Shown here: positions 1,734 through 64,000 of the stretch, in pieces
How the letters are laid out: each line of letters opens with the position of its first letter
Position numbering within the stretch: position 1 is the first letter of the stretch
NCBI RefSeq assembly: GCF_026210795.1
Contig: NC_089433.1
Span: forward strand, 5,394,001 to 5,458,000
DNA from: Rhizophagus irregularis
Lineage: Eukaryota
Length of the DNA stretch: 64,000 nt
Direction: 5' to 3'
The notes under the pieces: model-generated
The model's input: only the letters and a program-made list of their open reading frames with translations
Told to the model about the DNA's origin: nothing
The model's database searches: none
Program-made: the position numbers and the translations under genes

Positions 1734-4063
1734 ATGTCGATTTCTGGCACACAGATTTTATTATGGTGTTTGGTTCGAGGAGGATCCGTTTTTAACATTA
1801 CTATAGAAAGGAATAATCGAGTTTCTGATCTCAAAAAAGCTATCAAAAATAAGAAACCAAATGATTTTGCTAATGTCGATGCAGATAGACTCACGTTATG
1901 GATGCTTAAAAACACTGTTAATATTAACGAGATTCAAAGCCTATTTCTTCAAGATAACGAGAATGACCAAAATATAGTTTTATTAAAGGATATGCGAAAA
2001 ATTGAGAGTTATTGGCCTGAAGATCAAAACCATTCCGAAGATTATATCCACGTTGTCGTGGAACCACCAGTTCCTACCGGTAAGTTACTGTATAACAAAT
2101 TTAATCAACGTTATATAGCGTAACTTTCCTTCATTATCATATGCCAATAATATTTAATCTTGCGCCTACTTCGTCTAACACATTAGAGCAACTCTTTACC
2201 GGTAAGCGAGTCTTAATAAATTTATAAACGCGGTGGCTTGTACTTACTGTGCTATAACCTTAATAAACATAGCAACAATTTCTTCACTCTGTATTATTTT
2301 TAACAATGATTAAGTAAACTTACGCTTCTTTCCTGACCAGGCCAAGTAGGAGCTCATTCACTTTCTCCTTCTAATGCAGATAACGACATGTTAAAACGGC
2401 AAAAGCTTATAAAAGGTTAACTTTGCATGTATCATGTTTGGTCGAGTTATACTTCATGCCTTCTTATTGCTTTTTTCTCATTCATAGAGTATCAGGTGTG
2501 GCCTTGAGGCGAATAGCCCCTCGGTTAAAGCCAGACCTGAAAAGTTCTTTAAGGATCAACAAACAAATCCAATCCTTAATGGTCGACCGCTTGAAAACAC
2601 CGGTCCTCCTATTGCTCTTTTCAATAACACCTTTAGCTTATTTCTTAATGATTTTCATAATGAAAATTTGGAAATAACTTCTGATTTTTTGATATGGACT
2701 GAGGAACTTATTCTTGCAGCAGCAGATAGTTATGATAATGAGGAAGAACGGAATGAAAAAATAAGAGTGATACTTATGGAAAAATTGGAGCCATATTGTT
2801 GATTGAGTCCGGGAAAATAAAGCAAAAGTGTAAGAGTGATGGGATATTTACGATTACATCAGGCTTATTCTTCGTTCATTCGAGTAAAAATGATCCCACC
2901 ATCCAAGGAGCGATATATTACAGAGATTACTGGTCTCAACAAAATGTATGTTTAATTTTAATCCTTTGGTTAATGCTGTTCAAATCCATGTGTTCACATG
3001 GTCATATAGTAATTAATATCTTTTACTTAGGTTGAACAAATCCGAAATTGTTGTTGCGCTCCATCTTTCATTATCGCCATGGTCGGTGCGTGGTTTTGTA
3101 TTCTCGGAGGTGTCTTCCTTAGCAGGGTGGTAGTTCAGCCATTGACTGACTTGATTCCTCTCACAATAAATTTACAAGACTTTGATGAAGTGAGACGAAT
3201 TGCTCGTCTTTTTTATTCGTTATCTCGTGCATTACAACAGCTTAGTTTGTTTTACCAAAATTTGAAATTGACACCATCGGATCAACGATTCTTTCCTTAT
3301 ATTCGACAGTTCCCATTCAAAGGAGAAGATATTAATTTCACTTACATAAATGAAATATTTGATGATCATACAAGAACTATCTGGAAAGCAAAAAAAGAAA
3401 ATGGTCAAATTATTGTCGTAAAATTTACACCCAAATACAATATCGAAGCACACAACATCTGTTCGAGTATTTTCGTGCCCCAGATTTGTTCTATTGTAGC
3501 GATGATAATGAAGCAAAAACTCTTTGGGATTTAAGATGGTCATCATGGAGTATATTTCCGCTATTTCACTTGACCAAAAATTCATTAAAGGCGAAATCAA
3601 GACTGAGTCTTGTAAGGTTATTTACGAAGATATTAAGCAAGCCATTGGATTGCTACATGAGAAAAACTTTGTGTTTGCGGATCTCCGCGCTTCAAATATT
3701 TTGATTATTGACACAGAAGAAAATCAGCGGGCAATGCTCGTCGATTTTGATTGGTGTGGAAAAAGCGATGAAGACAGATACTCTCCGTCAATGAACAAGA
3801 ATATATCGTGGCCTCTCGGGGCAAAACCGCGCACCTTGCTCAGAAAAGACCATGACCTTTATTGGCTTGATGTGTTGTTGCGTGAGTTTTTGAGGTATGT
3901 TCTCTTCCTCTCATTTAATAATCTGTGCGTAATATTGGCTCTATTTATATTTACTTTACTTTATATTCCAGTCCAACAGATACTGTACACTCATATTCGA
4001 TATGCCAGTAGGTTCTCATATGTCTACCGCATCAAGAATTTGCTCTTCAGGATGAAGATATGA
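1734..4063 (+). pseudogene. CRN: Crinkler (CRN)-type effector-like gene: ubiquitin-like N-terminus, REase-like region and protein-kinase-like C-terminus; frameshifted
   Basis: The N-terminus LWCLVRG..FNITI..VSDLKKAIK..DADRLTLW..IHVVVEPP matches the CRN header. Downstream motifs are NGRP..GPPIALF, SDG..DPTIQGAIYY, VVKFT, VFADLRASNILI and LVDFDWCG. Exons seen at 1734-2079, 2187-2201 and 2341-2415, then from ~2488. Frameshifts near 2488, 2785 and 3480-3530. The 3' end is approximate. Confidence 0.8.
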
Positions 4064-4367
4064 ACATATTGTGAACATTTTAACGAGCTATTTGTTTGTC
4101 GATTATCGTAACTTTCATCTTCACAACAAAATCACATTGTGTAATTAATTAGATTACTTGTACACGTAGGGTCATGATTTTTAACAAATGTATATGTGTA
4201 GTATGGGTTTGTAACTGCATTGGAATAATAAAAGTATTTGCGTATTTGCATTTAACATTTTTATGCACAATTTAAAATTTTATTTTTGCCGTTCATCACA
4301 TTCTTTCAAACAGTGTCAAACAAAAAAAATTTTGATTTGTGGAACGGCTCTATAAAAAATATTATTA

Positions 4368-38416: not shown

Positions 38417-39193
38417 TTAATTATAAAATAATTATAGTAAAATAATATTATTATAAAGAATTTTTTAATAATTTAAAATTAATATATAGTATTATTTAAT
38501 AGTTAAATATAGTATTAAAGAAAAATTTTTACTTTTTATTAGTAAAATAAAAATTTAAAAATTTTTTTTTTTTAAGCAGTTATCATATTATTATTTGGAT
38601 AAAAAATGAAAAAAAATGAAAAATTAAAGTATAAAAAAAATGATAACAAAATTTTAAAAAAAAATAAATAGTAAAGTAATTGTTAAACATTTTTATACTT
38701 ATATAAAAAAAAAATTATATATATTTTCATTGAAAATAAAAGTATAATTAATTTAATAAGAAATTTTTAAATTATAAAAATAAATATTTCTTAATAATTT
38801 AAAATTAATATAGCCAAACCTTTATATTATACTTCCCAGCGAAATTAATTTAATTACGTCATTATACCTGACGTAATAAGCCGTAATAATTACGGTTTTA
38901 AATTTTAAAATGCCGATATGCCGTAATTAAATTAACCTGTCAAATTAATTACGGCAGTAAAATTTAAATTATATTAAAATAGGAAATAGATCAACTAATA
39001 AACACATGATTTAACATGAGTATATTAAATGAACGTAGTATATAATCATGTGTTATATTTCTTAAATTTTTTTTAAAATATTTCTTTGTCTTAAAAAATG
39101 CCAAATTTAAAATATTTTCTAACGCGTGTACCAATTAAACATTCTGATATAAAATAATACATTTTTTTATATATATTTTATACACTAATTATA

Positions 39194-41667
39194 ATGTCTA
39201 CTCAAGAAACAAATGGTGGAAGTTCAAGTGGCGTATTATTAAACACAAATAAAGAAAAAGGAAAACCAGGAAGAAAAAGAGGACCTGTTTGGATTCATTT
39301 TAATGATATTGGCACTAAAAAAGAAGGTCATATTGGTTGTAAATGCATGTATTGTGGCTGGACTCAAAACCGAGGAGAACCAGCCCAAATGCAAGCACAT
39401 TTAGCTTTATCCTGTTCAAAAGTTCCTTCTACAATTAAAATAGAATATTTACTTCTTATTAAACAAAATGCTGAAGAGCGAGTTACTAACTCTACTTCAA
39501 CTGTCTCAAAAAAAAGATGTGTTAATTTATCTCAAACAAGAATAGATAAATTTTATGAATCTGACCAGATTGATAGTACCAAACAAGTATTATGCGATAA
39601 AGCTGTTGCAAAATTCTTTGTTTGTTGTGGTGTGGCATTTCATTTAGTTTCTCATCCTTTTTTTATTGATATGGTTAAAAGTTTATGTAATGGATATGAG
39701 CCATCGTGTTCTACTACTTTATCCAATACACTTATGAACAACGAACTTACTAAAATAACTGTTGATCAGCAACTTACGTTAGATAAAGAATCAGATTTAA
39801 CATTAGGTAAAAAAATAAATTTTATTTTTAGATTTTTTAATTATTTAATAAATTTTGAATTTTTTAGGATTTGATGGCTGGACGAGCCCACGAGGTCAAT
39901 CATTATACGTTTTTATACTTATTACATGTGAACGAAAGGAAATTATACATAGTTTAAAAAATCTATCATCAGAATCTCATACAGCAAAATTTTTAGCTGA
40001 AAAAATTAATGAAGTAATTACAAATATTGGGCCTGAAAAATTTTCTGCAGTTGTTTCTGATCATGCTGCTGCTTGTGCATCTGCTAAACGAATCATTGCT
40101 GATACACATAAACATATTATTCCAATTAGATGTATTGCGCATCACATTAATCTCATTACAACTGATATTTGTAAAACTTCATTTGCCAAAGAGGTTATTG
40201 CGAAGTGTACAAAGTTAGTAAAATTTTTTAAAACATCACATCAAGCTGGTAAAAAGCTTAAAATGAGTATAATTGATGATTCAGTTAAAGGTGGAAATCT
40301 CAAAACTTATGTCAAAACTAGATGGACAACAGCTTGGGATTGTACGAATTCTATTTTACGTCTTGAAAATCAGTTAAAAAATGTAAGTTTATTAATTATT
40401 AATTATAAAATGAATTAAAACGTGAAATTTATTTTATTTTATTTATTTATTAGTTATTAAATGAATGCCCAGAAATATTGAATAATGAAATTAAAAGTTT
40501 ATTGCGAAGTAGATCATTTTTTAATGATGTTGATGCCGTTAATACTTTATTAGGCCCAGTCAAATCAGCAGTAAAGGCTCTTGAATTCAAATCAACTATG
40601 CTTGCTGATTGTTTTGTTGAATTAATCAAGTTATCACAAAGGATTAATTTCCTTCCACCAATATCAGATCAAAATTTTAAATCTACCTGTATTGAATTAT
40701 TTAATAAAAGATGGAAACAATTCGATTTTGATCTTTATATTTTAAGTTATATGCTTCATCCATACTACCGAGGTAAATTGTGAATTTTTTTTTGAATTAT
40801 TTATTTTTACACTAATCTTAATTAAATTATTATATTTATACTTTAGGTAAAGGTTTACATCCAATGGTCTTTCGTGATGTTTGTCTTAATGCAATGAAAT
40901 TGCTAAAAAATATGGGTGGTGGTGAAAATTCTTGTAGCGAATTAGTTGCTCAAATTCGCGCATTTACACAATATGAAAAACCTTATGATTTAGAGTATGT
41001 ATTAGGAATAGATAATGTTTTTTTATGGTGGCGATTATGCAATCCAGTACGTCCTGAAGAACATTATATTCAACAACTTGCTATGAAGATTTTATCAATT
41101 ACTCCACATAATGTAGGATGTGAACGTGTTTTCTCCATAATTGGTTGGATGGCTAATAAAAGGAGAACACGGTAAGTTAATATTTAATATTTAATATTAC
41201 TATATTAAAAAAAGTATATTATGCCTTTAATTTAGTTTTAATGTATTTAATTTAGATTAAATATTGAAAAACTTGAATCAATGGCGAAATTACATACGTA
41301 CTATATAACAAATGCAAAGTCTGAGCTCAAATTTGCATATAACACACTTTCCGAAGATCAATTTCAAAATGAAATTCAAGAAACATTATCTGATCCTTCT
41401 TTTTTTGATGATGATGATGATAATAGTGATTATGATGATGAAGATGAGGATTATGATCAAAATGAGGATGAGGGTGATGATACTGAGGCAGCTAATAATA
41501 ATAATTTGGAAATTTCACGATGGGTTAATATTATGGATAAAGAATTGCAAGAACTACTTCAAACAGAAGTTAAAGTAGTAATTGATATTTCTCCTCCACC
41601 ACCACTGGTAGATCACGGTTCTCAAGAATTTAATATGGAAGAAGTGTTAGATAGAATTCTCACTTAA
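39194..41667 (+). CDS. hAT transposase (BED zinc finger, RNase H-like DDE, C-terminal dimerisation domain); 5 exons
   Basis: Motifs VWIHF..CKCMYC..HLALSC (BED), FDGWT, VSDHAA, RCIAHHINL, KTRWTT and CERVFS. GT-AG introns at ~39807-39867, 40384-40453, 40773-40846 and 41172-41255. No in-exon stops seen. Confidence 0.92.
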
Positions 41668-42004
41668 AAACATAAAAATACATTGATAAATAAATTTTAA
41701 TATTTGTTTGGTATAATTACCCATAAATTTTTATAATGCTTAATTACGTCCAATATAAAATTGACCCGTAAACTATTTAAAATTATTTATTTATTGAAAT
41801 TAATCGCTAAACGCTAACACATTTTATACATTTTATTAAAAAAGAAAAAAATTTTTTTACGTCGAAAATATGATTCCGATGATTGGGTTGATCAGATGAC
41901 AGATCACAGATCCATAAATTCGATCTCATCGATCATTTTTTTTTTATTTTAATCTTTTTCTTTAAAAAAAACAATTTTAAAACCGATTTGTTTTAAAAAA
42001 AAAT

Positions 42005-42560
42005 GATATTTCGGTTTTCTTAAACCGATTTTTTTTTATTTTTAAAAATTTAAAATCATTTATTTATTTTTTATTTATTAATTATTTTTTTAAAAACAAT
42101 ATTTCGGTTTTTTAAACCGATTTCTTTTTATTTTTTTAATTTTTTTTTTTTAAAAAAAATAATATTTCGGTTTTCTTAAACCGATTTTTTTTCTTTTTTA
42201 AAATCATCATTTATTTATTTTTTATTTATTAATTATTTTTTTAAAAAACAATATTTCGGTTTTTTTAAACCGATTTTTTTTTATTTTTTTAATTTTTTTT
42301 TAAAAAAAACGATATTTCGGTTTTCTTAAACCAATTTTTTTTATTTTTTTTTATTTTTTTTCTTTAAAAAAATAGATATTTCGGACCAATTTAAAAAAAC
42401 TGATTTTTTTCTTTTTTAAAATTTAAAATTATTTATTTATTTTTTATTTATCAATTATTTTTAAAAAAAACAATATTTCGGTTTTCTTAAACCGATTTTT
42501 TTTCATTTTTTAAAATATATTTTTTAAAAAAAAACATTTCGGTTTCTTAACCGATTTTTT
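42005..42560 (+). repeat. Array of ~8 TCGGTTT-loop-AAACCGA hairpins in the hAT 3' region
   Basis: ATTTCGGTTTTCTTAAACCGATTTT recurs every ~60-100 bp, separated by T/A tracts. Confidence 0.85.
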
Positions 42561-42653
42561 TTTCTTTTGCTTTTTAATTATTTTTTTTTATTACAATTAT
42601 TTACTCTGAAGTCAGAATTGTAACTTTTTTAAGATCAAGAATACGGATCTTGG

Positions 42654-43038
42654 GTAAGTTGCCTTTTTTTTAAAAAAAAATTACTTTTAGAAACGTTATT
42701 AACGTTTCTTTTGTCTTATTTTTTAGGACTTATACTTTTTCGGGTTGAAATTTCAACTTGAAAGGTATGAGGTTTTTTTAAAATTTGCTTTTTTTTTAGA
42801 AATTATTAACGTTTATTTTATTATATTTTGTAGGGAAACATTTTCGGCTTCCTGGATTCTTCTAAGACATGAGTATGTTCTGTGTGGGGTTATTTTTATA
42901 ATTTCTTTAAAGAATCATATTAACGTTTTTTCTTTTAATTTCTCTGTAGGTTTTGGCTTCCTAATTCCTTCAGGATACAGGTATATGTGTGGGTGGGTAT
43001 TCTTTTAATATTAACATTTCTTTTTTTATTTTTTATAG
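42654..43038 (+). ncRNA. Putative spliced non-coding micro-exon cassette in the hAT (4 predicted introns)
   Basis: GT..ATTAAC..YAG units at 42654-42726, 42765-42833, 42873-42949 and 42981-43038, separating 31-39-nt exons. No ORF recognised. Confidence 0.5.
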
Positions 43039-44213
43039 GGTTTTCCATAAACTGCTTTTCCATTTGTAATTTTTGCGATCTAATCATTATTGTTACATAT
43101 ATTAATAATTACGTCATTTAATTTGCAGTCTGTCCTAACAAATAAATGAAAAATATCAATAGTGCTAAAACTAAAACTAAAAAAAAATAAAATAAAATAA
43201 TTAAGTATATTGTTTAAGAACTCTTTTTTATGTAATAAATAATAATTGAATTAATTGAATAATATAAACATATAATTTTTAAAAATCGGTTGTACAATTA
43301 GTTATACGTAATATAAATTATTTTAATAGCAATAAAGATAAATGGAATAATGGATCAATGGATCAAAGATTCAATTCTAATATAAAATCAATTCCGTCAG
43401 TACAAATTAATACGTCAGTACAAATTAATTACATCAGTACAAATAAATTACGTTACGTCAATATGCAATTCGGCATTGTGCCGTTATATTACGGCATTCA
43501 AAAATCAATTACGCTGGGAAGTATACTTTATATAACAATATGTTGAGACATATATAAAATTTTTAGAAAATATTATTATATCAAAGTTATACCAATATTT
43601 ATATGTCCTCACATATAGTGGAAAAATAGAATTTTATTATATCAAATTTTTAATAGTATATCGATATATCAAATATCAGTATATTGAAATTAAACTATAT
43701 ATAGTATTATTTAATAGTATTAAAGAAAATTTTTACTTTCTATTAGTAAAATAAAATTTTTTAAATTTTTTTTTGTTTTCATTAATTTTGGGAATTATAA
43801 AATACCATAGAACCAAAGAATTTAGGTAATTTATGACTTACAATGAAAGTTCTTTTCAAATGGCTATCGAGATGTTGATATTACCTGAATATCGTATATC
43901 AGAAGTGCGATTAGTCATTAATAGAAGTAAAAAAAAGGTGATGGTAAATTCCAGTTGTCATATTATCATTTGGATAAAAATCAAAAAAAAAACACAAGAA
44001 ATTAAAGTATAAAAATAAAAGTGATAACAAAATTTTTTAAAAAAACAATAATAAGCAATTATCAAATATTTTTATACTTATATAAAAAGAAATTATATAT
44101 ATTTTCATTAAAAACAAAAAGTATAGTTATTTAATAGAATAATTATAGCAAAATAATATTATTAGAATCTCTTAATATAAATATAATATTTTTCATTTTA
44201 GAAATTAACTAAG

Positions 44214-45423
44214 TATAACCGCAGGTGATATCACCTAACCAAAATCACATGATCAATATAATATGATATTATTTTTAATAGTTAATCAAAATTAGACTAT
44301 TTATACTAATTCCCACATTCCCTTCTTTTTTGCTCTTCTTTTCTTTTACTATATTATATATACAATGGAGTATAAAAACCCTAAATAAAAATAATCCTAT
44401 GGTTGAAAGTGATAAAGATGATTCTATATTAGATAAGTGACGAAGGTGAATATCATGATACTAAATTACTAATGTAGAAATTACACTATGTCCTGGTATG
44501 CAATTTCAGTTGTAGGAAGAATTAGAAACCCACCTTAATATTTACGCTCTTCAAGAAGGTTTTTCTTACAAAAAAAATAAGGCTTGAATATTACATGAGT
44601 CTAGTGGTACAGCCATCCCGATTTTTTGAGGAGATTAATAATATTTGCAAAAGAATTTTTTAACATTACATATACTTTCAACAGTTCAAAACCAAATGAA
44701 ACAAATCTTTTTTTTTGATGCTTCAAGAATATATAGAACAGGTATGGAGTAATTGATTATTTAATGACATGGTATTAAGATTAGGGTGTGGGATTAGGGT
44801 TAAGATTAGGGTGTGAGATTTAGTTAGGGTTAGGATTAGGGTGTGGAATTAGGGTTAGGGTGTGGATTAGGGTTAGGATTAGGACTTGGAATTAGGGTTA
44901 GGCTTAGCATGTTTATTGTTTCTAACTTTATTTATTTCTTTTTTTTTAATTTTTGATTGATGGTTCAACTTGCAAAGATGGATTCCGGGAATATGATTAT
45001 AAAATTAAACTAATTCTACTCAAAAATTTGATTGAAAATGTGCTATTAGATTCTATTGTAGAAATTTGGCAAATTAAGCCTGAATTATTACCAACACATT
45101 CACAGTTCATCATTTATTTATACCAGCGTGAACGTCCGCCAAAACTGTATCAAAGTGAAGGAGAACCACAAAAAATAATTAAAGAAAACAAAGAAAATCA
45201 AAGTGTTAATATAATGATAGCACTCTGAAAAAATTACAAAACTGTAGAGGTTTGTCATAATTTACGAAATTGCAAGGTTCTTAGCGATAAAAATTGATGT
45301 TATATTATTTGTAGATAATTAATTTATTTTAGTAGATGTTATAAATAAATTTTATTGTATATGCCATATCAATAATAATTCAATCATGTGACCATACTGG
45401 AGGTGATATCACCTGCGGTTATA
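44214..45423 (+). mobile_element. Internally deleted TIR element with FAR1/MULE transposase remnants
   Basis: Perfect 23-bp inverted ends TATAACCGCAGGTGATATCACCT. Remnants PGMQF..EELETHLNIYALQEGFSYKK (FAR1-like), IVEIWQIK, RERPPK and HNLRNC. Confidence 0.75.
44775..44907 (+). repeat. Interstitial telomere-like TTAGGG variant repeat
   Basis: Roughly ten TTAGGG/TTAGGA units interspersed with TGTGGA. Confidence 0.85.
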
Positions 45424-45539
45424 ATTAGCAATTTTCTTAATTTTATTACTATATACTGATTTTATTATAAATTCTGCAATATTACATATATTTTTTCCGC
45501 CTAACCACATATAGTCTTTGAAGTATAAGAACGATCATC

Positions 45540-46652
45540 TCAATTAGCTTCAAAAGGATGTGAAGATATTGCGATCTTACCATCTTTCAAATGATTAAGA
45601 TCAGCCCTGAGGCTTATATAACAATGTATGCGCTTCACAACCCACTGTGGTGCTTTACCTATTTTTCTTTTGCAATCATCGCACAATTGAAATCCTTTGC
45701 ATGGATTTGTGCAATTGCAACATAGTATTTTGCATGGACTTGGATTCTCGCAATCTCCACGTAGTCTTTTACAATCATCACACAAATTCAGCTTATTCTC
45801 ATCACATTTTATGAGGATATTGCAATATATTAATTGTACTATAAACCATTGTATATGATCCATTATCCAGAGTAAACCTCCATCTTTACCCTTGCGAACC
45901 TTTTTAATAAAGTTAGCCGATTGAGTCAAAAAGACTAGCATGCATATGAAGACAATTTTTATGGCTAATGAATTTTTGGTCATGACCAAACCAATGAAAG
46001 AAAGGAACAAAAACGAGGTTGAAATATAATATGCATAGTAGAAATTTGATACTATAAAATAAAAAATGAAAATTGCGATGGTCATTAGGAATATTAAAAT
46101 TCGAATGAATATTGCTTGAAAGGATAGATGGAAATGTAAAAAATCGATATATAAAAAATAGCCTATCATTACTAAAACATGGATAAGTACTTGATAAATT
46201 AGGGGATAAAAGAAATCAAAAAATATGAAAAGATATCGTTTTACTCCCACCAAATTTTCAAACGAGTGTATATTAAGTAAAGAAACTTCCGGGTTACGTG
46301 ATTTGTTGACGGAATAGTGAAAAAAACGTGAAATAATTTTTATAATTATGCAAATAATCATATAGATGGTAAACCAACTAATCGCTCTTGGTGCATCTTC
46401 TGTAGCGAATTCATTGATGATAGATAATACCAATGGTAAAAGGTGAGAAGAAACGACAGTGTGGAAAAGATTGACCCAGTATCCATAATGAATATGGTCA
46501 TTTTCTTTGTCGGTAAATGCAATTATCGAAATAATAATTGGCAAAATTGTAAAGAATAAATTATCAATAAAAGCATCATCATTATTTTGTTCTTTGTCGC
46601 TTTGAGCAATTACAATGCTAGGGAAGAAAATTAAGATATAGGAAATATCCAT
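45540..46652 (-). CDS. Uncharacterised multi-pass membrane protein with a Cys-rich C-terminal tail
   Basis: 370-aa intact ORF with about 7-8 hydrophobic segments. The tail has duplicated LCDDCKR and C.NP(S)PCK motifs. Confidence 0.75.
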   Translation of the reverse strand: MDISYILIFFPSIVIAQSDKEQNNDDAFIDNLFFTILPIIISIIAFTDKENDHIHYGYWVNLFHTVVSSHLLPLVLSIINEFATEDAPRAISWFTIYMIICIIIKIISRFFHYSVNKSRNPEVSLLNIHSFENLVGVKRYLFIFFDFFYPLIYQVLIHVLVMIGYFLYIDFLHFHLSFQAIFIRILIFLMTIAIFIFYFIVSNFYYAYYISTSFLFLSFIGLVMTKNSLAIKIVFICMLVFLTQSANFIKKVRKGKDGGLLWIMDHIQWFIVQLIYCNILIKCDENKLNLCDDCKRLRGDCENPSPCKILCCNCTNPCKGFQLCDDCKRKIGKAPQWVVKRIHCYISLRADLNHLKDGKIAISSHPFEAN

Positions 46653-47270
46653 TTTTTTAAAGTTGAAAATAAAAGTAATTTTAAAAATCTTTTATATAAT
46701 TTGTATGTTCCACAATTGCTCCATCAAAAATCGTCTGATAAATTGTGGACAGTTAATTCCGAGCTCAGCTAATTCTGAACTCTGAAGTGATTGTAACATG
46801 AATTAGGTAACAATAACAAATAATAATCATTTATGCAAAATATTTATTCTTGATCCCGACAATAATGACGTGATCGGTTTTAAAAATAGGCTGACTCCGA
46901 TAACAAAACATTGAACTGTAAATACATATCTGATATGAAAAATGTTCATATCCGCCGATCTTTGGAATTGGCCAAAATTAATAAAAATATATTAGTTCGG
47001 TATAATAAAATTATTTGTTTTATCGAATATTTGAAATAACGACTTCGTTATATCGAGTTCTGACTGCACATTGCTATATTGTAAATTTTGATACACGATT
47101 TTCCTGCTATACCTTTATTTTTATTTCACAAGCGATATCACAATAATGAATAATACATTTGTTTTGTAATCTATTGTGCCCTGCCCACCCACTGTGTTCA
47201 CGCCCTGAAAAAATAGTAGCTAACATAACCGCCACTTAATAAAAAACAGACTAACTCTGCTTGACATTAA

Positions 47271-47964
47271 TTACATTCGTGTTTTGCGAAAGGAAGGAAG
47301 AATTGTAGGTGTTACAGGCCTAGAAACAGCAGGTTCTTCTATGGATGGTGTCACTGATCTTGATGGCACCTCCTTGTCAACTTTTGATGATTTCTTAGAT
47401 ATGCTACGAGGGGGAACTGATTGCTCAGTTTCAGAACTCAACCATTCAGGTGTAGAGATCGAAGATACTCTTGAAGACAACTTGGCCGTTGAAGGTGAAC
47501 CCTGACCTAATATTTTCATTCGAATGGAAGTTCTAGCAAATGAAAAAAAAATTGTGTTAATTTTGGGTACCACTCACTTATTTTCCCAGAAACAATTACC
47601 TGGTTCTGGCTTCGTTGAGAACTCCTCATATAACTTCTCCCCAACTTTCTCTTGTTCCCAGTTCTTTCTCTATATTTTTTTCATTGTCTAATAAAATAAT
47701 AAATAAATTAACCAGACAAGTCTTCGTAGGACGCAAGCAGTTGCAAGCAATCGGCCAGTACTACTTACGTAAAAAGCTTTCATGAGACTTAAGAATTTTT
47801 ATAACAATCTTCGCCAGTGAAGTAATTTATATTTTCTTGTTTGTTTATTTTCCAGCAATATTATCCCAAAAGAAATATTTCTTCTTACTCAGAGCATGAT
47901 ACTCAGCATTTCTTTGTTTTCATTCATCAATGAGAATGCAAAGCTGGGCGTCAGAGAACTCCAT
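47271..47964 (-). pseudogene. Decayed Myb/SANT(MADF)-like gene, probably a transposon accessory ORF
   Basis: Minus-strand MEFSDAQLCILIDE*KQRNAEYHAL... with stops and frameshifts. Later exons include GEKLYEEF and a Ser/Pro-rich tail (ORF 47271-47573). Confidence 0.5.
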
Positions 47965-50104
47965 AGTTGACTACATGGTGAGAAGCTTTTCTAGGAGCGC
48001 TTATTTTATGGAAAAAATATCGAGTGATGATCAATTATAACGGTGGCTTAGCTATTTTATTTAACTAGCCCCCCAAAAAAGCACTGGTCGGCCGGCATTA
48101 TGCGGAATTATGTACTGTCACGTGAGCAGTGCGTGGTGACAAATAATGCACCCCTTTTTTGTGTGCCAGGTTCATAGCTTAGCAAGCCACGCACCACAAA
48201 ACTTATTTTGGCCAGAATTAAAATGAATTAAAATTAAAGTATATAGTCCACGCGGTACCACAAAACTTATTTTGGCCAGAATTAAAGGGAATTAAAATTA
48301 AAGTGTATATATCGTATCAATAATGCAAAATTTTAAGAATATAATTAAACGAATTATTAAAAATACTAAACTTTTAAGAAATTAAATGAATAATAAGTAT
48401 CTTTTTTAATAAATTTAAAGTGTATATATATATAATAAATATGGACAAAGTAAAAATATTGCAAATTTATTTAATAAAGCACAAGTTAAAATTAAAAATA
48501 TAATTTAATTCAACTGATTTCTTAGAATATTTTTGCTTAAATTGTGTTCTTTTTTACCAGTTTTCTTTTTTTTCTGACTTGGAATTATTTATGAATCTAA
48601 ATTTTCTTTTCTGTCAGCTTGCTTATTAGTGCCACCTGATTTATTTTTTTACACCGCTTAACAGACTCTATCTGAACACGAATTATTGCACCACTCTTAA
48701 TGCGTGTTAGATCTACATTGTGGTTAATATCATAAAGGAAGGAACACAAGTGAGGAATTGATTTTGATTTGATGTATGGTATCGTTCAGCAAATTTGTCT
48801 AATGCAGTACGAAACTGTGGACCACAATTTTCATAATCTACTTTAATTTCTTCCAAGAAATCGCCCAAAGTAGATGTGTTGATTTCATTCTCTTTTATTT
48901 TATTATTTTCATTTAATTCTCTCAGAAATTAGTTGTCAGTTATAGAATTCAATTGATAGCTGCAGTTCAGAATTGTCAATTGTTTATCATTTTCGTTATG
49001 CGATTCTATCTGCAGAGTTTGAACTTGTGAGAAAGGACCTGCATGTAGTGAAGCATAAAAAGAACCATTTTTTGCAATGTAGCTTAAAATAATAATAAAT
49101 TATGTGAGTGATAATTATAATAAATATCAAATTTAATGGAATCTGTTTGCCAAGTGCGATATAGAAATAGATCATATGATCATTAAGAGTTAATGATGGT
49201 AGAAAATTAAAATTTGAAATGTGAAATTTTACAGAAACAGCTTGCACGGTGTGCCTATCATCCTAACATGACAGCTACAAGTTCCAATAGCACTGTTAAA
49301 CAACATAAAAACAACCCATTTTTTTTGTACTTGGAACTAAATATTCATTTTTGAAAGTTGTTGGTTAAATGGAATTACTATTCACTTTTTCCCAATCTGG
49401 ACAAAAGAACCTTTTTGTGATCGTATGATCCAGGTGTTTATATGCAATTCTGAGCAGTTTAAATTTATAAAAATGGTCTATGTTATCTGTAACAAAATGA
49501 AAGACTTGAACTGGATTAAAAGCTTGAGTTCTAGAAAAAATGATATTCTTAAGTATGCTAAAGCTACATTCAATATAATTATTTGTATTGTTTCCACGTA
49601 TCAGTAGCATCAAACGAAAAGATAAAGCCCATAATTGGCGCTGTTTCCATAAAAGATCAAAGTGTTTTTGTAATTGAGAATATAAGTGAAAAAAATTATG
49701 TTTAAAGTCTTGATAATGGTTATCCATCTCTGGCTCTGTTAATACGTAAAGAATTTTTTTCATCATCTTTATAATAGGTATTTGATCATTTTTATTTATA
49801 TGATGTTTTGAATCGTACAACCATCTTCAAAATACCTGGAGTATATGGAAAGTACATAAAAGACGTATTCCCGTGGCCAACAGAGCTTTAGAGCGTTTCT
49901 TTCTGCGCTTGAATCATCTGTAAAAAATACTATAAGACCAACTTGAGAACTACATTTATAGAAGGCATATGAAGGTAAAATCATCTTTAGCAAATTTAGC
50001 TAATCGTAAAAAAGAACAATAATTAGAAATTTGTAATTACCGAGAAAAAAATCATAGGAAAATTACCGCTTTTTCCAATATTATTTCTGATTTATCTGAT
50101 GTAA

Positions 50105-53100
50105 CACTGGTCAAAATCAAAACTTTCGACCGTTAAGAGCTTTCGGTATAATTTTTGCTGATTGGTCATATGATTCATCACATTTTTTGACCAATGGCAA
50201 AAATCAGTAAAATCAATCACAAATCAACTAATACTGATTGTTAAACGAAAACTCATTCAGTCTTTTGGTGAAAAATCAACTTATACCGATTGTTATACAA
50301 AAAATTGCTCTTTTAAGATCATTCAGTAAAATTATACTGATTGGTCATATAAATCAACACAATTTTGCCAAATTTGCCAAACGGTAAAAATCTGGCAATA
50401 ATTCGGCAAATCAGTTGATAAATGACTGAAAAAATCAGATGATCCAGATCGATATTTTACAGGTCTTTTTAAAATAAACTTTTTTAAACTTTTTAAACTT
50501 TTCGCCTCTCTCTTTCATTCGTAAATGTACACATTAAATTCGGTAACTTTTTATTAAATCAAAAAAGTTTCGAAACTTTCTTTAAAAAAACATTTTTTAC
50601 ATTAAAAAACGTTTTTTTTTATACTTTTAGTGAAGAAAATCGGTTCCAGCGTGGATACCGATATTACAGGTAAAGTTTTGAAAAATTTTGAAACTTTCTT
50701 TTAAAAAAAAAATGTTTTTAGCTAAAAACGTTTCTTTTTTATATTTTTTGCAGAAAATCGGTTCCGATGTGGATACCGTTTTCCTAAGTAAAGTTTCGAA
50801 AAAAATTTTTAAAACTTTCTTTAATAAAACATTTTAATAAAACGTTTTTTTATTTTTGTATAGGAAATCGGCTCCAGCGTGGACGCCGATATTCCAGTTA
50901 AGTTTCAAAACTAAATGGTTTAAAACTTCTTTAAAACGTTTTTTAATAAAAAAAACATTTTTTTTTTATTTTTTTTATATAGGAATTCAGCTCCAGCGTG
51001 GATGCCAATATTCCAGTTAAGTTTCGAAACTAAAGTTTCAAAACTTTAATAAAACGTTTTTTAATAAAAAAAATGTTTTTTTTTTATTTTTTTTATATAG
51101 GAATTAAGCTCCAATGTAGACGCTGATATTCCAGTTAAGTTTTGAAACTAAAGTTTCGAAATTTTAATAAAACGTTTTTTAATAAAAAACGTTTTTTTTT
51201 ATTAATTTTTGTAGAAAATCGGTTCTGGCGTGGATACCGATATTCCAGGTAAGTTTCAAAACAAATGTTTTGAAACTTCTTTAAAAACATTTTTTTTATA
51301 TTAAAAAACATTATTTTTTTATTTTATTGTATAGGAATTTGGCTCCAGCGTGGACGCCGATATTTCAGATAAGTTTCAAACCATTTTTGAAACTTCTTTA
51401 AAAAAAAAACGTTTTTTAACGTTTTTTTTTATACTTAATTGTAAAGCTATCAGTTCCAGTGTGGATACTGAACCCCAAAGATAAGTTTTGAAAAATTTTG
51501 AAACTATAATAATAAACGTTAAAAATTAACATTTTTTTTTTATTTTTTGTAGGGATATCAGTTCCGGTGTGGATACCAAAATCCCAAAGGTAAGTTTCGA
51601 AAAAAAATTTTAAAACTCTTTTTAATAAAACGTTTTTAATAAAACATTTTTTTTTATGTTTGTATAGGAAATCGGCTCCTACTTGAATACCAAATTCCAA
51701 AGGTAAGTTTCAAAACAAAGTTTTGAAACTTTAAAACATTTTTTAATATTAAAAACGTTTTTTTTTTACTTTTGTATAGGAATTCGGCTTCAGCGTGGAT
51801 GCCGATATTCCAGTTAAGTTTCATTTTCAAAACTTCTTTGAAAAAAACGTTTTTTAACGTTTTTTTTTTAATATTATTGTAGAGTTACCGTAAAGTTTCA
51901 AATTTTTAAAACTTTACGAAACTTAATAAAAAAAACGTTTAAAGTAACGTTTTTTTATTATTTTTTATTATTTTTTTTTGTAGAGAATTGGCTCTGATTT
52001 GGATACCAATTCTACAAGTAAAGTTTCGAAGTTTTTTTTTCGAAACTTAATAAAAAACGTTTATTTTAAACGTTTTTTTTATTTTTTTGTAGGAAATCGG
52101 CTTCAATATGGACGCTAAAATCTCTTCGGTCAGGTTTCAGGATGAGTTCAACATGGAATTTCGAAGGTAGAACTTCAAAATATTTCATTAATTTATCTAA
52201 TAAACATTACTAACATTCCTTTGTATTTAGAAAATTTTTTTTTTTTTATTTGAACGAAACGTTTGCTAACGTTTTCGTTCTTTTTTTTTGTAGATTCAAG
52301 ACGCCCTCAAAGTATAATAGGGGTTTAGGGCATGGAATGGTTGATGGTAAGTTTTGAAGTTGGTTTAATTTTGAAACTTTAAAAGAAATGATTTACTAAT
52401 CATTTCTTTCTTCTTTTTGTAGGCTTTCACTTCAGGCTGATGGATCGGGTAAGTTTCGAACTATTTTGAAACTTTTCAAAATTTTTTTTTTATAAAAGAA
52501 TCGGTTTGCTAACCGTTTCTTCTTTTTTTTTGTAGATTTCCCCCTTCGACTTTTTATTGGATGGGTAAGTTTTTCGAAACTTCATTTTTTATTATTATTA
52601 AAGAAACGAACTAACCGTTTCTTTTTTTTTGTAGGTTTCCATTAACGAATTGGAGGTAAGTTTCGAGTATCGAAACTTTAACTTTTTTTATCGAAGAAAC
52701 ATTAAACTAATTGTTTCTTCTTTTTTTTTGTAGGTTTCCCACCCTTCGGACTTTATTGGATGGACAGGTAAGTTTCGAATTTTTTCAAAACTTTATTTTT
52801 TTTATTGAAGAAACGTTAAACTAATTGTTTCTTCTTTTTTTTTGTAGATTTTCTTCTTCGGACTTTATTGGATGGGTGGATAAGTTTCGAATTTTTCGAA
52901 ACTTTATTTTTAATTATTATTAAAGAAACGAACTAACCGTTTCTTTACTTTTTTTTTGTAGGTTTCCCCTTCAGATTTTATTAGATCGGGTAAGTTTCTT
53001 TTGAAACTTTAACTTTTTTTATTTAAAAAATAGGTTACTAACCATTTTCTCTTTTTTTTTGTAGGTTTTCTACGGATTTTTATCAGGTTAGGTGAGGATG

Positions 53101-54943
53101 ATGGGTGGATAATGGATGGTGGATGGTGTATATAGATGATAGATAGCTATATATTAATTTAATATGTAATTTTTAATACATATGGGCCGATCCTTGGAAT
53201 CTAATTTTTTACACAAAAATAATTTTATTAAAGCAAATATAAATTATCATTTATATAAGAATAATAAATTTATACTAGGTAATGCAAAAAAAACTAATTA
53301 ATTATATAATTTTTAATTTTTTTTTAATATATGATATCATTAAAATTTAAAAGATCAAATATAACTCTCATGACAAAATCATTGATAATTCTTCGTAGAA
53401 ATAAGCTATACAAATAAATTTACATTCATTTGAAAGAGAAAATCGAGATCTATCTAATGAATCTAAAATCAAGTGAATTGAATCACTAGTTGTTCAGTAA
53501 TCACGTTCAGTATATTTATTGAATTTTATCTAAATTTGATCATTAATTACTTCACATGTAGTGATTCAATTTGAATGATCTTTGCTCCCTAAGGTGATGC
53601 CAACTTTTATCTTTAAAATAAATTTAAAATAATTCGTTTAATATATGTAGAATCATCAATTATATTATTAATATAAAATTTTATAAGTTTGATAAAATCT
53701 GATATAAAAAAATTTATTAAATACCTGTAGATGCAAGCTACACGAATGAAATTATATTCATTTGAAAGAGAAAATTGAGGTCTATCTAATAAGCCTAAAA
53801 TCGAATGAATTGAATCACTGGATTGTGAATAATTACGTCTAATATATTTATTTTTAATTTTTAAATTTGATTTGACTTTGATCGTTAATTACGCCTCATC
53901 CAGTGATCCAATTTTCCTGATCTTTGATTCTTACGATAGAGCAAATTCTCAGCTTTCAAATGAATGTAAAATGATGACGTTAGCATATCTCCAGGAATAA
54001 TAATGCACGATTTTGTCACCTGCATAAAGTCCGATCTGAAAATTTTATTTCTTACCAAAAAATGCTTTCATAAGAGAATCCCAAATTCTTTTACTTTATT
54101 TAAAAGATTTTATTTGCCATTTAAGGATTTTAGTAGAATAAATCTAATAAAATAATTTTAAAAGATAAAAAACAAATATATAATTAGTTATTTTGAAAAA
54201 AAAAGAATATCTTATTATTCATTTTACAACTATTTTACATCATAATTATTTTTTATTTGCATGTATTTTTTACAAAGAAAAAACAATAAATTAAAGCTAA
54301 AAATTATGAAAAAATATGTCTTATCTATGTATATAAAATATTAAGTTTTTTCTTTTACTTACCACTTAAAAATAACTGCTATATTTGCTTATAAACTTTT
54401 TTGTCATATTTAATAAAAGTGAATAGAAAAATGATGGAAAAGTGATGGGCAGTGATGGGAAAAAAGAAGTGGTTATTACCGTTATTTTTGAATATTGATT
54501 AAAAAAATTTTTTTATTTTTTATTAAATCTGAGTTACGTAAATATGTAACACATATTTAATTTAGATTTGTGTAATGTTAATCTTACTAAAATATTAAAT
54601 TTTTATAAAAATCTTAATTTAGACTAATTCCAAAAATCGGCACATATGAAAATGAATTAATAAAATTTAATTAATAAATTATTATAAAATTAAATCAGTA
54701 ATCAGTTAAATGTACAAAAATCGGTAATAAATTATTAGGTTTATTAACAATCGTCAATTTGATTTTACCGATTTGTTGCCAATTTTTACTGATCAATTTG
54801 TTGACAAATGGCAGGCGTTATGGTGCAAATCATCTATATAATTAGTTGCCGATTTTTTGGTACTGATCGGCTAAGGTAAGACTGAATTTCGTCCAACATT
54901 CAGCAATTTAAAATTTTGCCAAAATGAACTATTCTGACCAGTG
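50105..54943. mobile_element. Non-autonomous CACTA/CMC-type element inserted in the MULE transposase
   Basis: TIR CACTGGTCA(A/G)AAT. 3-bp TSD TAA at 50102-50104 and 54944-54946. Subterminal (C/T)GATT repeats. Removing the element rejoins the transposase motif LITSD. Confidence 0.9.
50543..53064 (+). ncRNA. Putative multi-intron structured ncRNA: ~22 tandem micro-exon/intron modules
   Basis: Period ~100-120 bp: polyT-(G/A)TAG | 21-37-nt exon | GTAAGTTTCG. CTAAC/CTAAT branch sites occur in the distal 8-9 introns. Exons fold into covarying hairpins. No long ORF. Confidence 0.65.
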
Positions 54944-57449
54944 TAATTAACATCCAAGTGGCAGCACACCTGCTGCATAACTTGTATATAAAAGTGTAAT
55001 TGAGGTTCAAACGATGCAGATGCATCAACATAACAAATTTCTCCAACTTGCAGAATTTTTTCATGAATGCGGCACATTAAACTGGATACAATGCATAAGA
55101 TGAACGCTTTTTCAGTTTATATATCATATTCCTGTATAATCGCTTTACCATTACCCAAATTGTTATAATGATCAATTACTTCTACTAAGTGTTCAAACAT
55201 TTTCTCACCATTACAACTGCCAAGCATATTATTATGGTATTTATGGAAAAGTCTAACAATATAACCATAGTCTGACTTGATAGCTCGATCTGCAAGCATT
55301 TCAAGCAACTCCTGATTACTTTCTGCAGTAGTGTGAAACCTATCTTCATAGAAATATATTGTCAAAGCAGACGAATGCCCATCTTCAAATAACTCTAAAA
55401 ACCTTTCATGTACCTCTTCCTTAACATGCTAAAAACTTAATGATTCTGCCAAATTTATTACATGATTGTGCGTAAATCTAATATTGATTTCCAGCAGATT
55501 GCTATGCGACTCAATATGCCAATTTTCTAGCTGAATTTTAATACTTGCATTGCAGTGAACATTTCTTATTCAAGTTGACTGCTGAAACTTTATTTCACGA
55601 TTACCTTATTTTTTTTTAACATCATTTCCATGTATACAATGTCGTTTTAAAAGCACCTTTTTTCCTTTTACTCTGTATCCCTTTGTTTGAGACATCGTGA
55701 TTTTAGAATGACTGATATTAATAAATGCTTTTAGTTCAAATTGTGGGATCGAAAAATTCTCAAAAGTTTGATAAGATAGTAGTTAATTAAACTTTTTAAT
55801 TAAGTATGAGTAACCTGATGAAAGAACTAATTTCAAAAGATCGGGTAATGAACTCTAAACTAAAATCTGTAAGAATTAAGAAATAACAATTATGACAAGT
55901 TTAGCAACAATGGTGACTTTGACAAAATAAAATATTTTAACAAATCGGAATAGTAAAATTTTTGCAATATATTAATATATTAATATTTAATGAAAATAAT
56001 TTACAATAGTACAAATTTGATAAATTAAAATATAAAATATAGTTATATAATACTAATAAAACTTTGTAATTTGTACTTTAACCTCGTCTATACTATTATC
56101 GTTCTCTATAATTTTAGACAGCAAAAAAAAAACAAAACTATTTGGTTTTATTTAACTAAATAAAACGTTAAATAAAAATATTTATTATAGTCTATGTGGT
56201 TTTATATTTCGCTTCAAAAAATGGTAAATAAGATGGGAAGAAAAAGAGATGGTTAACACGACACAAATAAAATCAATAAAATCTGTGTACAATGCGAAAT
56301 TAGGTCACGTAAATAAGTAAATTATTAGAAGAGTGGTGGCGCGTGACGTATGGTGCAGCTGTGCTACACATTTTTGCCATGAACCTGGCACACAAAAAAG
56401 GGATGCAAAATATATTATTTATATTTTATTTAATTTTTTATTAACTATTAATTCTAAAAATGCGATTTTACTATCATTAGATTCGTCTTGTTGAGGCGAT
56501 TCCAATGAGCTATATTTCATCCTTTTCTGATCATTGGATCAAAAGTTAGCAAACTGCCTGATTGGTGATAGTATTTGGCGAAAATGCCAATCAGTTACCA
56601 ATCGGTCACCAATCAGCTAACAGATTGGTGACTGATTGATACCTGATTTTTCACTTTTTGACCTGTGTTTATTCAGTAGATATAGTTGGTTGAAAAATAT
56701 TTTCACAGATTTCTGACTGCATATTATTTCAGTAATTTCTTGCTGGATCATCCACAATTGTATTTCAGCTTCCAGTACTATAATATATAATAGTTCAGCC
56801 TAGTAAAGTTAAATTTAATTAGAAAAGTGTAAGGAAAAGCATAATGCTATATTTAATAAGATTGGTATATATTAGTATTACCTGTCGTAAATAGTTGTAA
56901 GTTTAAAAATTAAGTAATTATAATGGTTGTAAATTAGAATTATTATTTTTTAGTTAATCACAATAATATTTTACATTTTTCATTTAACTATTATTTATTA
57001 TCAATAATTCTTGTAAATATTATTGAAATTTACCAATTATATCTTGATATACTTATCCTAAATGTTTATATTTCTATAAATATAAATATGTTTCTTTATC
57101 TTTTAAGTTTTAAATATATAAGATATTTTCATTTAGAATTATAAATATGTGGTTTTCTTTGATAATTTATTCTTAATCTTTAGTATAATTTTTATTTTAA
57201 ATTTTGTTATAATTTTCATTTTTAATTTTTAATTTTATAGTAATTTTATTTTTAATTTTTAGTATAATTTTTATCTTGATTTTTAATATAATTTTAATTT
57301 AATTTTTAATTTAATAGTAATTTTATTTTTGATTTTTGGTAGATTTTACTATAACTTGCATTTTTGATTTTTAGTGATAATTTTCATTATTAATTTTTAA
57401 TTTTAATTTTAATGTAATTTTTATTTTGAATAATATTTATAATGTTTAA

Positions 57450-58833: not shown

Positions 58834-59475
58834 GTTTTATCCTTTTCCGATTACTGGCTGACGAGTTATTCAACAAAATGTTAAACATCGGCATTATAAT
58901 ATTTCTTGATTTACGTTTACTGCACCATTTAACATTTTGCTAGATTTCTCGGTACCTAGTGATTGTAAAAAGACGATTTATAGCTCGTTGGAATCGTCTC
59001 ATCGAGACGAATCGAATGGTGGTAAGCTCATCTCTCTGTGATCGATATTGACGGAGTTATTACTTAAAAACCATTTAATATTTTTTAATTTCGGAAATTG
59101 ATCTAGTGATTGGATTTCGATGTATATTATACCATTAGATTCGTCTCATCAAGACGAATCAAATGGTAGTACGATCGTCTTTCTAGGATCAATATTGGCA
59201 GAGTTATTACACAAAAACCATTAATATTTTTTTTAATTTCGGAAATTAATTTAGTGATTGGATTTCGACATATTTTATACCACTAGAACCGTCTCATCAA
59301 GACGAATCGAATGGCGGTAAGATCATCTCTCTACGATTAATATTGGCGAAGTTACGATACAATAAAGTTTTAAGTATAATTCTGGCTAAAATTATGTTAA
59401 TTTTTGGCCAGAATTATGATATACAAATATAAGAAATTTTTTATATAGTCACATCTCTTTATAATCACCAAATAT

Positions 59476-61649: not shown

Positions 61650-64000
61650 CAGTCTGTCCTTTTTATAGCGAATTTTGATATAACGAATAACACGATATAG
61701 CGGATCTTTAGCGTGGTACAGATTTTGACATATGAAAAAAACCTTGTCAAACCGAACTTTACTAATTAAATTTCGTACAACGTTTAACGAAATAAAGTGT
61801 GTGAACATGCTTATATAAAATGATCCTTTTTATAACGGATTTTTTTTATAACAGATTTTTTCTGATTTTTTTATGAATATACCGAAGAATTATTTTTTAT
61901 AACGAATTTTTTGAATTTTTATGAATATACCGAAGAATTTTTGCGAAATGAATCTTACTATAAAGGACTATTTATCATGAAATATTTTCTCAATGTAAGA
62001 ACTACATCATAAAATTAATTTATAATGGATACTTTCATACTTCATATTTTATTTTACACTTCATTGTTACTCTGGATATTTTTTAAAAATGCCAAAAGCC
62101 AAATCTGTAAAACCTGGTAATAAACAACTTAATGGAATCCCCAGAAAACGTAAATCTCTTATAGCAGCACAAAAGAAAGAAATTTGTTTGAAAAAAATTT
62201 CTACTCCCTCCTTAAAACAAAAAGAACTAGCCAACGAATATGAGGTTAGTGAAGGAATGATCAGTGATATTTTAAAGGAAAAAGACCGTTGGCTTGTTGT
62301 AGATCTTGATTCACATCAAGCTGGATTACGACGCGAAAAAAGATTCCTTTTCCTATCATTGAAGAGGCTTTAACTCTTTGGGTAGAAAGTGCACTTCAAG
62401 CCAGTCTTATCATCAATGATGATATTCTTTCAAGCAAGGCCTGCCTGAGCTTGCTTTTTTGTGTGGAGAAGATAAATTCAAAGGGTCAAATGGTTGGGTT
62501 GACAATTTCAAAAAGCGGCACAATCTTAGGCAATACAACATGCATGGAGAAGCAGCAAGTGCACCTGTTCAAGAACTTGATACAATGCGTGAAGAAATTC
62601 GTAGAGTTTTAAAGAATTATGCCCTGAAGACATCTTTAATTGTGATGAGACAGGTCTTTTTTGGAAAATGCGACCTAGTCGTACAATTTCTAATGCCCCA
62701 ATTTCTGGAACAAAACAGTCAAAAGATCGTGTAACTGTTTTGCTTACTTGCAATGCAACTGGGAGTGAAAAATTATGTCCATTATTCATACACAAATATG
62801 AAAACCCTCGAGCCCTCAAAAACATCAATAAGAAAACTCTTCCAGTAGATTATCACTGGAATCCAAAAAGTTGGATGCAAGTTTCGATCTGGGCCAATAT
62901 CTTAAAAAACTTGATGCTCGAATGAGAACACAAGGTCGAAATATTCTTCTTTTAGTCGACAATGCTCCAACTCACGCCCTATTTGAAACCACACGCCTTA
63001 CAAATATCACGCTTGAATTTCTTCCTCCAAACACTACTGCACACCTCCAACCATGTGATCAAGGTATTATAAATAGCTTCAAGCGTAAGCTTCAATTAAT
63101 GAACATTCAATTCAGAATGTAGTAATGTTTTATACTTGAAATTTTAAAAATTCGTTGTTTATTTTAGGCACAATATCGAAAGCTATATTTACACAATCGA
63201 GTCAAATCATATGATAATTTTAATGAATATGGCACTGAACCCGTTGAAATTAATATTAAAAAATGCATCAAATATGTTGCACGTGTATGGGATAGTGTTA
63301 CAAAAACTACCATTGAAAACTGTTGGCTAAAAGCGGATATCCTGCCTAAAGATGATGATGGAGACGAAGTTAGAGATGATGATTGTGAGCATGATGATCA
63401 TGTCCATGATGACCATGACTCCAATGACCATGCCGATACTCAAATTTATCTTACACATATTAAGGAATTGGAAGAGATTCAAATGTTGATTGATAAACTT
63501 GATTTTGAAAAACCTTTTACTGCTGAAGAATTTATTCAATGTGATAGGGAAGAAATTACAACGGAAATGATATCCAATGAAGAAATTTTGAAAACCGTTC
63601 TTCCCAATAATAATCGAAGAGGAAGTAGAGGAGATTCCTTTACCTAGTATCTTCTATGTGTATTGAATTTTATGATAAGGTGATTTTATATTTGGAGCAA
63701 CAGGAAGACGGTTTTGATACAAAAAAAGAAGAGTTGAAATTTGTTAAAAAGCTAAAAAAAGAAGCTTTAAAACAACGGTTTATTTCTGCAAAACAGACTA
63801 ATCTTGATAGTTATATTAATATAATTGAGTAAATTTATTCGTGTAATTAAGAGGCTCAATTTTTGTTACATTTTCATAAATAATTCAGTATAATAAAATG
63901 TTGTTAAAAATTTAAAAATCGCGTAATTTATTATTTATAGTTATCTCTTAAAATAAATAATAATAAATTTTTAATGAATATTCGGTATAATATAATGAAA
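61650..64000 (+). mobile_element. pogo/Tigger-like DNA transposon (right end beyond the window)
   Basis: Left end TA-CAGTCTGTCCTTTTTATAGCGAA with TATAACG(A/G)A subterminal motifs, followed by a transposase. Confidence 0.8.
62089..63832 (+). pseudogene. pogo/CENP-B-like transposase (HTH plus DDE_1), frameshifted
   Basis: Motifs FKGSNGWVDNFKKRH, HGEAAS, FNCDETGLFWK, LLVDNAPTH and QPCDQGII are spread over several frames. One intron at ~63085-63167. Confidence 0.88.

Follow-up and report, generated by a model that had tools for sequence, protein, structure and literature searches.

The DNA transposons Ac, Spm/CACTA and MuDR carry subterminal tandem repeats or long terminal inverted repeats with promoters. 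Introners, structured introns that form families of similar members and are tied to DNA transposons, have been dispersed into unrelated genes, and PATCs provide an intron-based recognition of self versus non-self. In Cryptococcus, poorly spliced transposon RNA is sent to RNAi through stalled spliceosomes (PMC6232588), and in a HUSH study protection needed long introns, with short introns protecting little and efficiently spliced stuffers not at all (PMC8770142); both systems supply a logic by which intron-dense, well-spliced RNA could escape silencing. These two and PATCs are, however, host systems, and the amplification of introns by a transposon as a counter-measure is not reported in the sections of these papers available to us. 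The transposon-derived lncRNAs of the fungus Blumeria hordei have been proposed to regulate transposons; according to the accessible part of the report, they are antisense to coding genes and mostly have two exons, with more than five in under 1.9% (PMC10648671). In Rhizophagus irregularis, a recently expanded hAT family has many copies with low methylation, and neither 'intron' nor 'splic' occurs in the main text of that paper in the form available to us (PMC8647823). Our literature search, beyond whose scope lay Repbase-style reports, subscription journals and supplements, found no account of transposons with tandem arrays of introns and micro-exons; curated repeat libraries in supplements may already hold these consensus sequences.

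We analyzed a 64,000-nucleotide stretch of R. irregularis DNA (hereafter the window), in which a hAT transposon carries, downstream of its transposase stop codon, a unit of introns and micro-exons that is transcribed on the transposase strand, with two introns spliced. Similarly to the Blumeria lncRNAs, this RNA is spliced (in one contig), apparently non-coding and derived from a fungal transposon; it differs in not being antisense to a coding gene, since it lies outside the coding region in sense orientation, and in that its relatives are tandem micro-exon arrays. The likeness to Ac, Spm/CACTA and MuDR lies in CpG-bearing arrays near the element ends, sometimes inverted at both, as in the related loci L052 and L031, but here each repeat is an intron plus an exon and is spliced, and there are separate ATTACG-type subterminal repeats. 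As with introners, similar structured introns are tied to DNA transposons; unlike introners, the units of the window are tandem, lie inside the element and have probably non-coding exons. The architecture is real, spliced and recurring, and its function is a proposal only. If functional, it would be a response of transposons to genome surveillance that relies on introns. Methylome, small-RNA and long-read data of this fungus are public, so that families with and without arrays can be compared. Even if it is neutral, gene predictors read the units as coding exons (gene models P0155 and P0167), an annotation effect that could inflate the orphan gene count in these genomes.

The hAT element and its intron and micro-exon unit

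The hAT element is an intact insertion, and probably a recent one. It has short terminal inverted repeats and an 8-bp target-site duplication on both sides, and the corresponding empty site is present in a duplicated segment. The transposase frame is uninterrupted once four introns are removed and matches R. irregularis proteins at 98-99%. Pfam places DUF659 in the transposase at 3e-22, and the source names 'BED-type' and 'ribonuclease H-like' indicate a BED finger and an RNase H-like transposase. At E 0.01, Pfam gave no C-terminal hAT dimerisation match in P0002, a model that is incomplete there; a CERVFS-like motif in the transposase may mark this region. A short motif directly after the stop codon (41675-41695), common to the Myb-clade elements described below, is possibly the poly(A) signal closing the transposase mRNA.

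Table 1. Features of the hAT and CACTG elements, in window coordinates
Feature	Position	Strand	Remarks
Empty insertion site, duplicated segment	36888..36935		CTTTATAT once only
Target-site duplication, left copy, 8 bp	38820..38827		CTTTATAT
Intact hAT DNA transposon	38828..43525	+	14-bp perfect terminal inverted repeats
Transposase gene, 727 aa + stop	39194..41667	+	Introns 39807-39867, 40383-40453, 40773-40846, 41172-41255
Internal GT donor, last transposase exon, micro-exon frame	41608..41613	+	Predicted use in gene model P0155
About 8 TCGGTTT/AAACCGA hairpins in A/T tracts	41980..42556	+	Period ~61-63 and 150 nt
Intron 1, 73 nt	42654..42726	+	Branch-point hairpin at 42689-42709
Micro-exon 1, 38 nt	42727..42764	+	11-bp hairpin
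Intron 2, 69 nt	42765..42833	+	Spliced in X6 RNA contig
Micro-exon 2, 39 nt	42834..42872	+
Intron 3, 77 nt	42873..42949	+	Spliced in X6 RNA contig
Micro-exon 3	42950..42992	+	31 nt to predicted donor; 43 nt in X6 contig
Predicted intron 4, 58 nt	42981..43038	+	In gene model P0155; unused in X6
Observed last intron, 136 nt, GT..AG	42993..43128	+	X6 joint plus 12 intervening letters
Last exon	43129..43269	+	X6 contig continues ~92 nt beyond 43177
Right subterminal ATTACG-type repeats of hAT element	43385..43511
Target-site duplication, right copy, 8 bp	43526..43533		CTTTATAT
Non-autonomous CACTG..CAGTG element (earlier 'CACTA')	50105..54943		3-bp TAA duplication
CACTG array A, 14 intron-like units, mostly 34-nt hairpin exons	50543..52092	+	7/14 donors decayed
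CACTG array B, 8 introns, 21-53-nt exons	52215..53064	+	Donor and branch hairpins

Hairpins and then introns follow the transposase gene. Strict matches to TCGGTTT..AAACC[GA]A numbered six in the whole window, all within 42011-42495, and a looser pattern gave seven in the two examined parts of the hairpin array, against a maximum of one in 1000 shuffles; together with a degenerate unit at 42379, the seven make about eight hairpins. There are no splice sites in this hairpin array, and it was found in none of the 80 hAT relatives described below, among which no close relative includes its 3' flank. The four predicted introns that come next all have the form GT..TTAAC..AG and separate internal exons of 38, 39 and 31 nt, and a chain of three internal micro-exons arose in one of 1000 shuffles of the region. 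Compared with shuffles, the hairpin around the branch point of intron 1 folded with a z of -3.8 and exon 1, a hairpin with three G.U pairs, with a z of -4.7; exons 2 and 3 folded no better than shuffles (z +0.7 and +1.1). The three micro-exons are not copies of one another, and one of the four donors is GTAAG. A search with Rfam 15 of 42590-53400, comprising the intron region and the CACTG arrays, returned nothing at the gathering score, its one match having an E of 0.23 and lying 21 bits under the cut-off. The intron ends with branch hairpins (42689-42723 and 42803-42834) recur elsewhere in the genome next to different flanks; among these recurrences, one had a depth several times that of the rest, and one was present in poly(A) reads.

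Reads from four of 24 listed runs were compared with region 42590-43178. In X6, a single 268-nt RNA contig with a depth of 3.9 skipped introns 2 and 3 exactly and used donor 42993 and acceptor 43128 in place of predicted intron 4. Its splice joints, which lie beyond the stop codon, read GT..AG on the strand of the transposase. At its start, the contig has five unmatched letters at the acceptor of intron 1, which was therefore likely used as well. The poly(A) raw run X21, of which 24% was read, gave 37 records and no junction at a three-read threshold; it contained unspliced reads over introns 3-4, whose C>T and G>A changes mark them as coming from another copy. X24 yielded seven partial reads. 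The matches in X15, probably a DNA run, were limited to intron ends of other loci, and gaps in its coverage prove nothing. With no junction row in X21 and partial reads in X24, splicing was thus shown once, in the X6 contig. These results agree with the sequence-only reading of the locus in the eight or so hairpins downstream of the stop codon, the first branch point within a hairpin, the first internal exon as a hairpin with G.U pairs, and the exact junctions of introns 2 and 3 expected in RNA-seq; as for its four introns with 31-39-nt exons, the layout stood, with introns 2 and 3 spliced and intron 1 compatible, and intron 4 was replaced by a longer one in X6.

The gene model P0155, found on two contigs in a different assembly, links the transposase with the micro-exons via introns 2-4, and the model P0167 uses introns 1-3. 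Although these models are predictions, they place the unit in at least three other R. irregularis contigs, in line with the expectation that other copies of this hAT family carry it. The open frame comprises 39 codons in the predicted form or 46 in the X6 form, in phase with donor 41608, and shuffles are open for such a length in 19% of cases in that frame and in 48% in any frame. The peptide of the window differs from that of P0155 in 2/39 residues and from that of P0167 in 7/42, all three of the exon-3 variants in X21 alter the residue, and in three other arrays exon lengths are a multiple of 3 in 2/21, 4/26 and 1/13 units. The residue-altering variants, the exon lengths and the frequency of open frames in shuffles indicate that the unit is likely non-coding. 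The predicted peptide had no homologue outside R. irregularis, its Atlas matches scored 0.90 or lower and were unnamed or unrelated, and reading through from exon 1 via intron 2 into exon 2 gave no match in a homologue search either. No conserved reading frame of a second protein-coding gene was found, nor was any Myb remnant in the window at E 1. In sister hAT families, the gene models P0014, P0020, P0076, P0161 and P0005 end in or contain repetitive peptides, which, judged from the protein models alone, look like micro-exon arrays read as coding.

Related hAT loci and the CACTG element

A metagenome scan yielded 80 hAT loci at 35-68% identity, which by protein kinship and intron style we infer to come from mycorrhizal fungi. 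Since the chain detector gave false positives within coding regions (L032, L033 and L111), only chains of at least three micro-exons outside the coding region were counted. Such chains were found in eight of the 80 loci (L026, L028, L030, L031, L046, L052, L053 and L064), and across all data chains of this length numbered 11, against 0.15 per shuffled set. In a quick tree of 61 rows, from which 20 short loci were omitted, arrays occurred in three clades beyond the one of the window. L052 and L031 have arrays at both ends, facing inward, the left one preceding the transposase start, and in L045/L046/L065 the array is at the right end in sense orientation, as in the window. The arrays adjoin subterminal repeats in other hAT lineages and reach up to 10 micro-exons. 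However, most loci whose ends were reached have no array: chains of at least three were present in 5/21 and absent in 16/21 loci reaching the left end, and present in 3/21 and absent in 18/21 loci reaching the right end. The arrays are therefore optional rather than general among related hAT elements, and the earlier proposal of a general transposon function overreaches.

What is repeated, in several lineages, is precisely a single intron with a single exon. GTAAG donors were found in 21/21 and 24/25 distinct array introns compared with 40/120 control introns; the controls were picked automatically, under a filter for low GC and a less strict pyrimidine cut-off, so that contrasts in GC, CpG and tract are partly circular. 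L020 and L067 contain decayed units. Intron-less tandem repeats of 23-27 nt, facing inward at hAT ends, were observed at L054:1-800 and 3950-4274 and at L064:4500-4860; in L054/L055, tandem repeats lacking introns occupy both ends, and the repeats of L054/L064 hold TTGGAC/TTGGTC, which resembles a motif in array exons of related families. GGACU, presumably an m6A-like motif, was enriched in two hAT array types (24 vs 5.5 and 19 vs 5.3); it was dropped as a signal, as it is absent from the exons of the window and the units are tandem copies. L019:560-1750 belongs to a 2.2-kb 5' region ahead of the transposase with several non-repetitive introns and 58-129-nt exons. The viral collection contained no relative of the transposase, three pattern scans gave single scattered matches, the first set of which was judged to be chance, and the prokaryote genomes gave one fungal-looking contig, whose flank is without an array. 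L111 is a fungal-looking, intron-containing hAT contig within a bacterial MAG labelled Puia sp., probably a contamination.

In the clade sister to the family of the window, a small Myb/SANT gene occupies the slot of the micro-exons (14 of 60 tree loci). It is seen, for instance, at L013:3533-4060 as a second gene with introns downstream of the transposase (PF13837, E 3e-7), and also in L010-L012, L014, L016, L036, L037, L040, L041, L045, L046, L060, L061, L065 and L082. This two-gene layout recalls PIF/Harbinger, and our literature search found no paper on a Myb/SANT second gene in fungal hAT elements. The Myb gene at this position and the common motif after the stop codon suggest that the region is a slot for a separate unit.

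The second element in the window has CACT[AG] termini and a 3-bp duplication, as expected for CACTA/CMC, and no long ORF inside 50105-54943 that could be its own transposase. Together, its arrays comprise 22 intron-like units, which have hairpins at donor and branch point. The CACTG element lies within a broken one (48147-56407) that has ~30-bp inverted ends, and interrupts its transposase; we take this broken element to be Mutator-like by its motifs, and it had no Pfam match.

Compared with shuffles, arrays align mainly in the branch zone, with a motif like AAGAAACG..YTAAC..CGTTTC. The z scores there were 9.5 for the window and L045, 6.5-9.6 for L052 and CACTG array B, and 4-6 for the window and L052; between the hAT unit of the window and the CACTG arrays the alignment was weak even in the branch zone (z 0.7-2.1), and exon sets did not align above chance between the superfamilies (z at most 2.3). 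Branch hairpins of at least 7 bp occur in 17/21, 6/8, 2/3 and 1/4 introns of four arrays, in 0/25 L028-type introns and in 4/120 control introns, counts that are not independent because the units within an array are tandem copies. The branch motifs sit at the loop or the stem edge of 7-12-bp hairpins, and the stems stay paired through base swaps in distant lineages. Stem mismatches had no clear bias of G.U over A.C (11:6 and 3:4, with three patterns used). Given this lack of bias, palindrome correction at the DNA level may be what keeps the stems paired here. The CpGs of the arrays have decayed from CG to TG/CA, and the array copies therefore get methylated.

The sequence-only reading had likened the core of the TCGGTTT hairpins to the exon stem of the 'CACTA' element and proposed a hairpin array plus micro-exon module that the two superfamilies share by exchange or convergence. 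TCGGT/ACCGA is literally present in the stem, but the resemblance does not exceed chance (z 1.6). The intron and micro-exon design does recur in hAT and CACTG elements far above chance; the hairpin array occurs in none of the 80 hAT relatives, and the exons remain unaligned between superfamilies. By alignment, the superfamilies seem to share only a branch-point hairpin of ~25 nt. As exons and hairpin cores differ, wholesale exchange of a cassette is unsupported, and independent amplification from a common intron style appears to fit better.

Explanations for the arrays

The explanation that we favor, tentatively, is that gene-like splicing makes the end of the element resemble an efficiently spliced host gene and thereby avoid silencing, the anti-silencing benefit being the presumed part. 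A promoter of its own behind the 3' end of the transposase gene would start transcription of the unit, and each lineage would have built up its own units through tandem amplification. Strong splice signals, spaced at roughly 110 nt, could help RNA polymerase II across AT-rich DNA and prevent the RNA from entering the small-RNA pathway, and the CpG-bearing subterminal repeats would then remain accessible to the transposase. This mimicry is favored by the two exact GT..AG joints and the third junction in X6, by the excess of chains over shuffled sets and their occurrence in eight loci of three clades, by the position of the arrays beside subterminal repeats, inward at both ends in L052 and L031, and by the retention of splice signals while exon similarity was lost. 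The low methylation of many hAT copies in R. irregularis (PMC8647823) and the Cryptococcus pathway for poorly spliced transposon RNA (PMC6232588) provide a fitting context. Its main weak points are the many intact relatives that are array-free, the CpG decay within arrays and the poor protection by short introns in the HUSH study. The low depth of the X6 contig, the unspliced introns 3-4 without a junction row in X21 and the single GTAAG donor among four in the unit of the window also count against it, and hairpins over a donor or branch point could slow splicing instead of helping it. A wider claim, namely that DNA transposons of arbuscular mycorrhizal fungi, both hAT and CACTA, repeatedly evolved end arrays with a shared branch-point hairpin as a counterfeit 'self', we consider unlikely.

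Neutral amplification is a close rival to gene mimicry, although we regard it as somewhat doubtful. Here, an intron plus exon unit would have been amplified by slippage or unequal exchange in a transcribed non-coding part without any dedicated function, and splice sites would persist since unspliced forms harm the transposase mRNA (in the case of 5' arrays) or since amplification was recent. The patchy distribution and variable position of the arrays, the exons unrelated between lineages, the decayed arrays of L020, L067 and CACTG array A, the intron-less tandem repeats of L054/L055 at the same positions and the few spliced reads are all in agreement with such tolerated cargo. It accounts less well for a unit of exactly intron plus exon with near-invariant donors in several lineages, for branch hairpins that keep pairing via base swaps in distant lineages and for three exons in the window that are no copies of one another.

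Quite unlikely, in our view, is that the arrays act as DNA, with CpG-centred inverted motifs (AAACG..CGTTT, TTCGAA and TCGG..CCGA) bound in a methylation-sensitive manner by the transposase or a Myb-type partner, and with splicing incidental. Ac transposase binds AAACGG, and sister families encode a Myb/SANT protein. In the two measured parts of the hairpin array, the observed to expected ratio of CpG is 5.6-7.2, while that of CACTG array A is 2.3 and that of the transposase gene 0.68, and both the missing splice sites of the hairpin array and the lack of an RNA-type G.U bias in the stems point in the same direction. However, the array of the window element is at one end only, 1-1.5 kb inside, the L028-type introns lack the hairpin altogether, and the donor, branch point, tract and acceptor all share a register on a single strand.

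A self-limiting device, in which hairpins stall the spliceosome or introns after the stop codon trigger decay, leading to small RNAs or less transposase mRNA, is improbable, as mature spliced RNA exists and the element is intact and probably recently inserted. The Cryptococcus precedent, in the available text of that paper, speaks for it (PMC6232588), as do the branch motifs at the loop or stem edge of hairpins, the mostly unspliced reads in X21 and the inward right-end arrays of L030, L031 and L052, which are predicted to yield antisense RNA. Least of all do we expect a coding role of the micro-exons, reached via the internal donor 41608, as another transposase C-terminus or as a small peptide: the frame is open and P0155 joins it to the transposase, but such frames are common in shuffles, every observed change between copies alters a residue, the searches found no homologue outside R. 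irregularis and the gene models are predictions.

Elsewhere in the window, a gene in pieces at 1734-4063 encodes a Crinkler N-terminal and a kinase domain, and interstitial degenerate TTAGGG-type repeats are found at 44775-44907. Further features, at 58991-59354 and 62000-63830, are a repeat of 148 nt from a dispersed element and a pogo/Tc1-like DDE_1 transposase with a frameshift (weak Pfam match, E 0.03).
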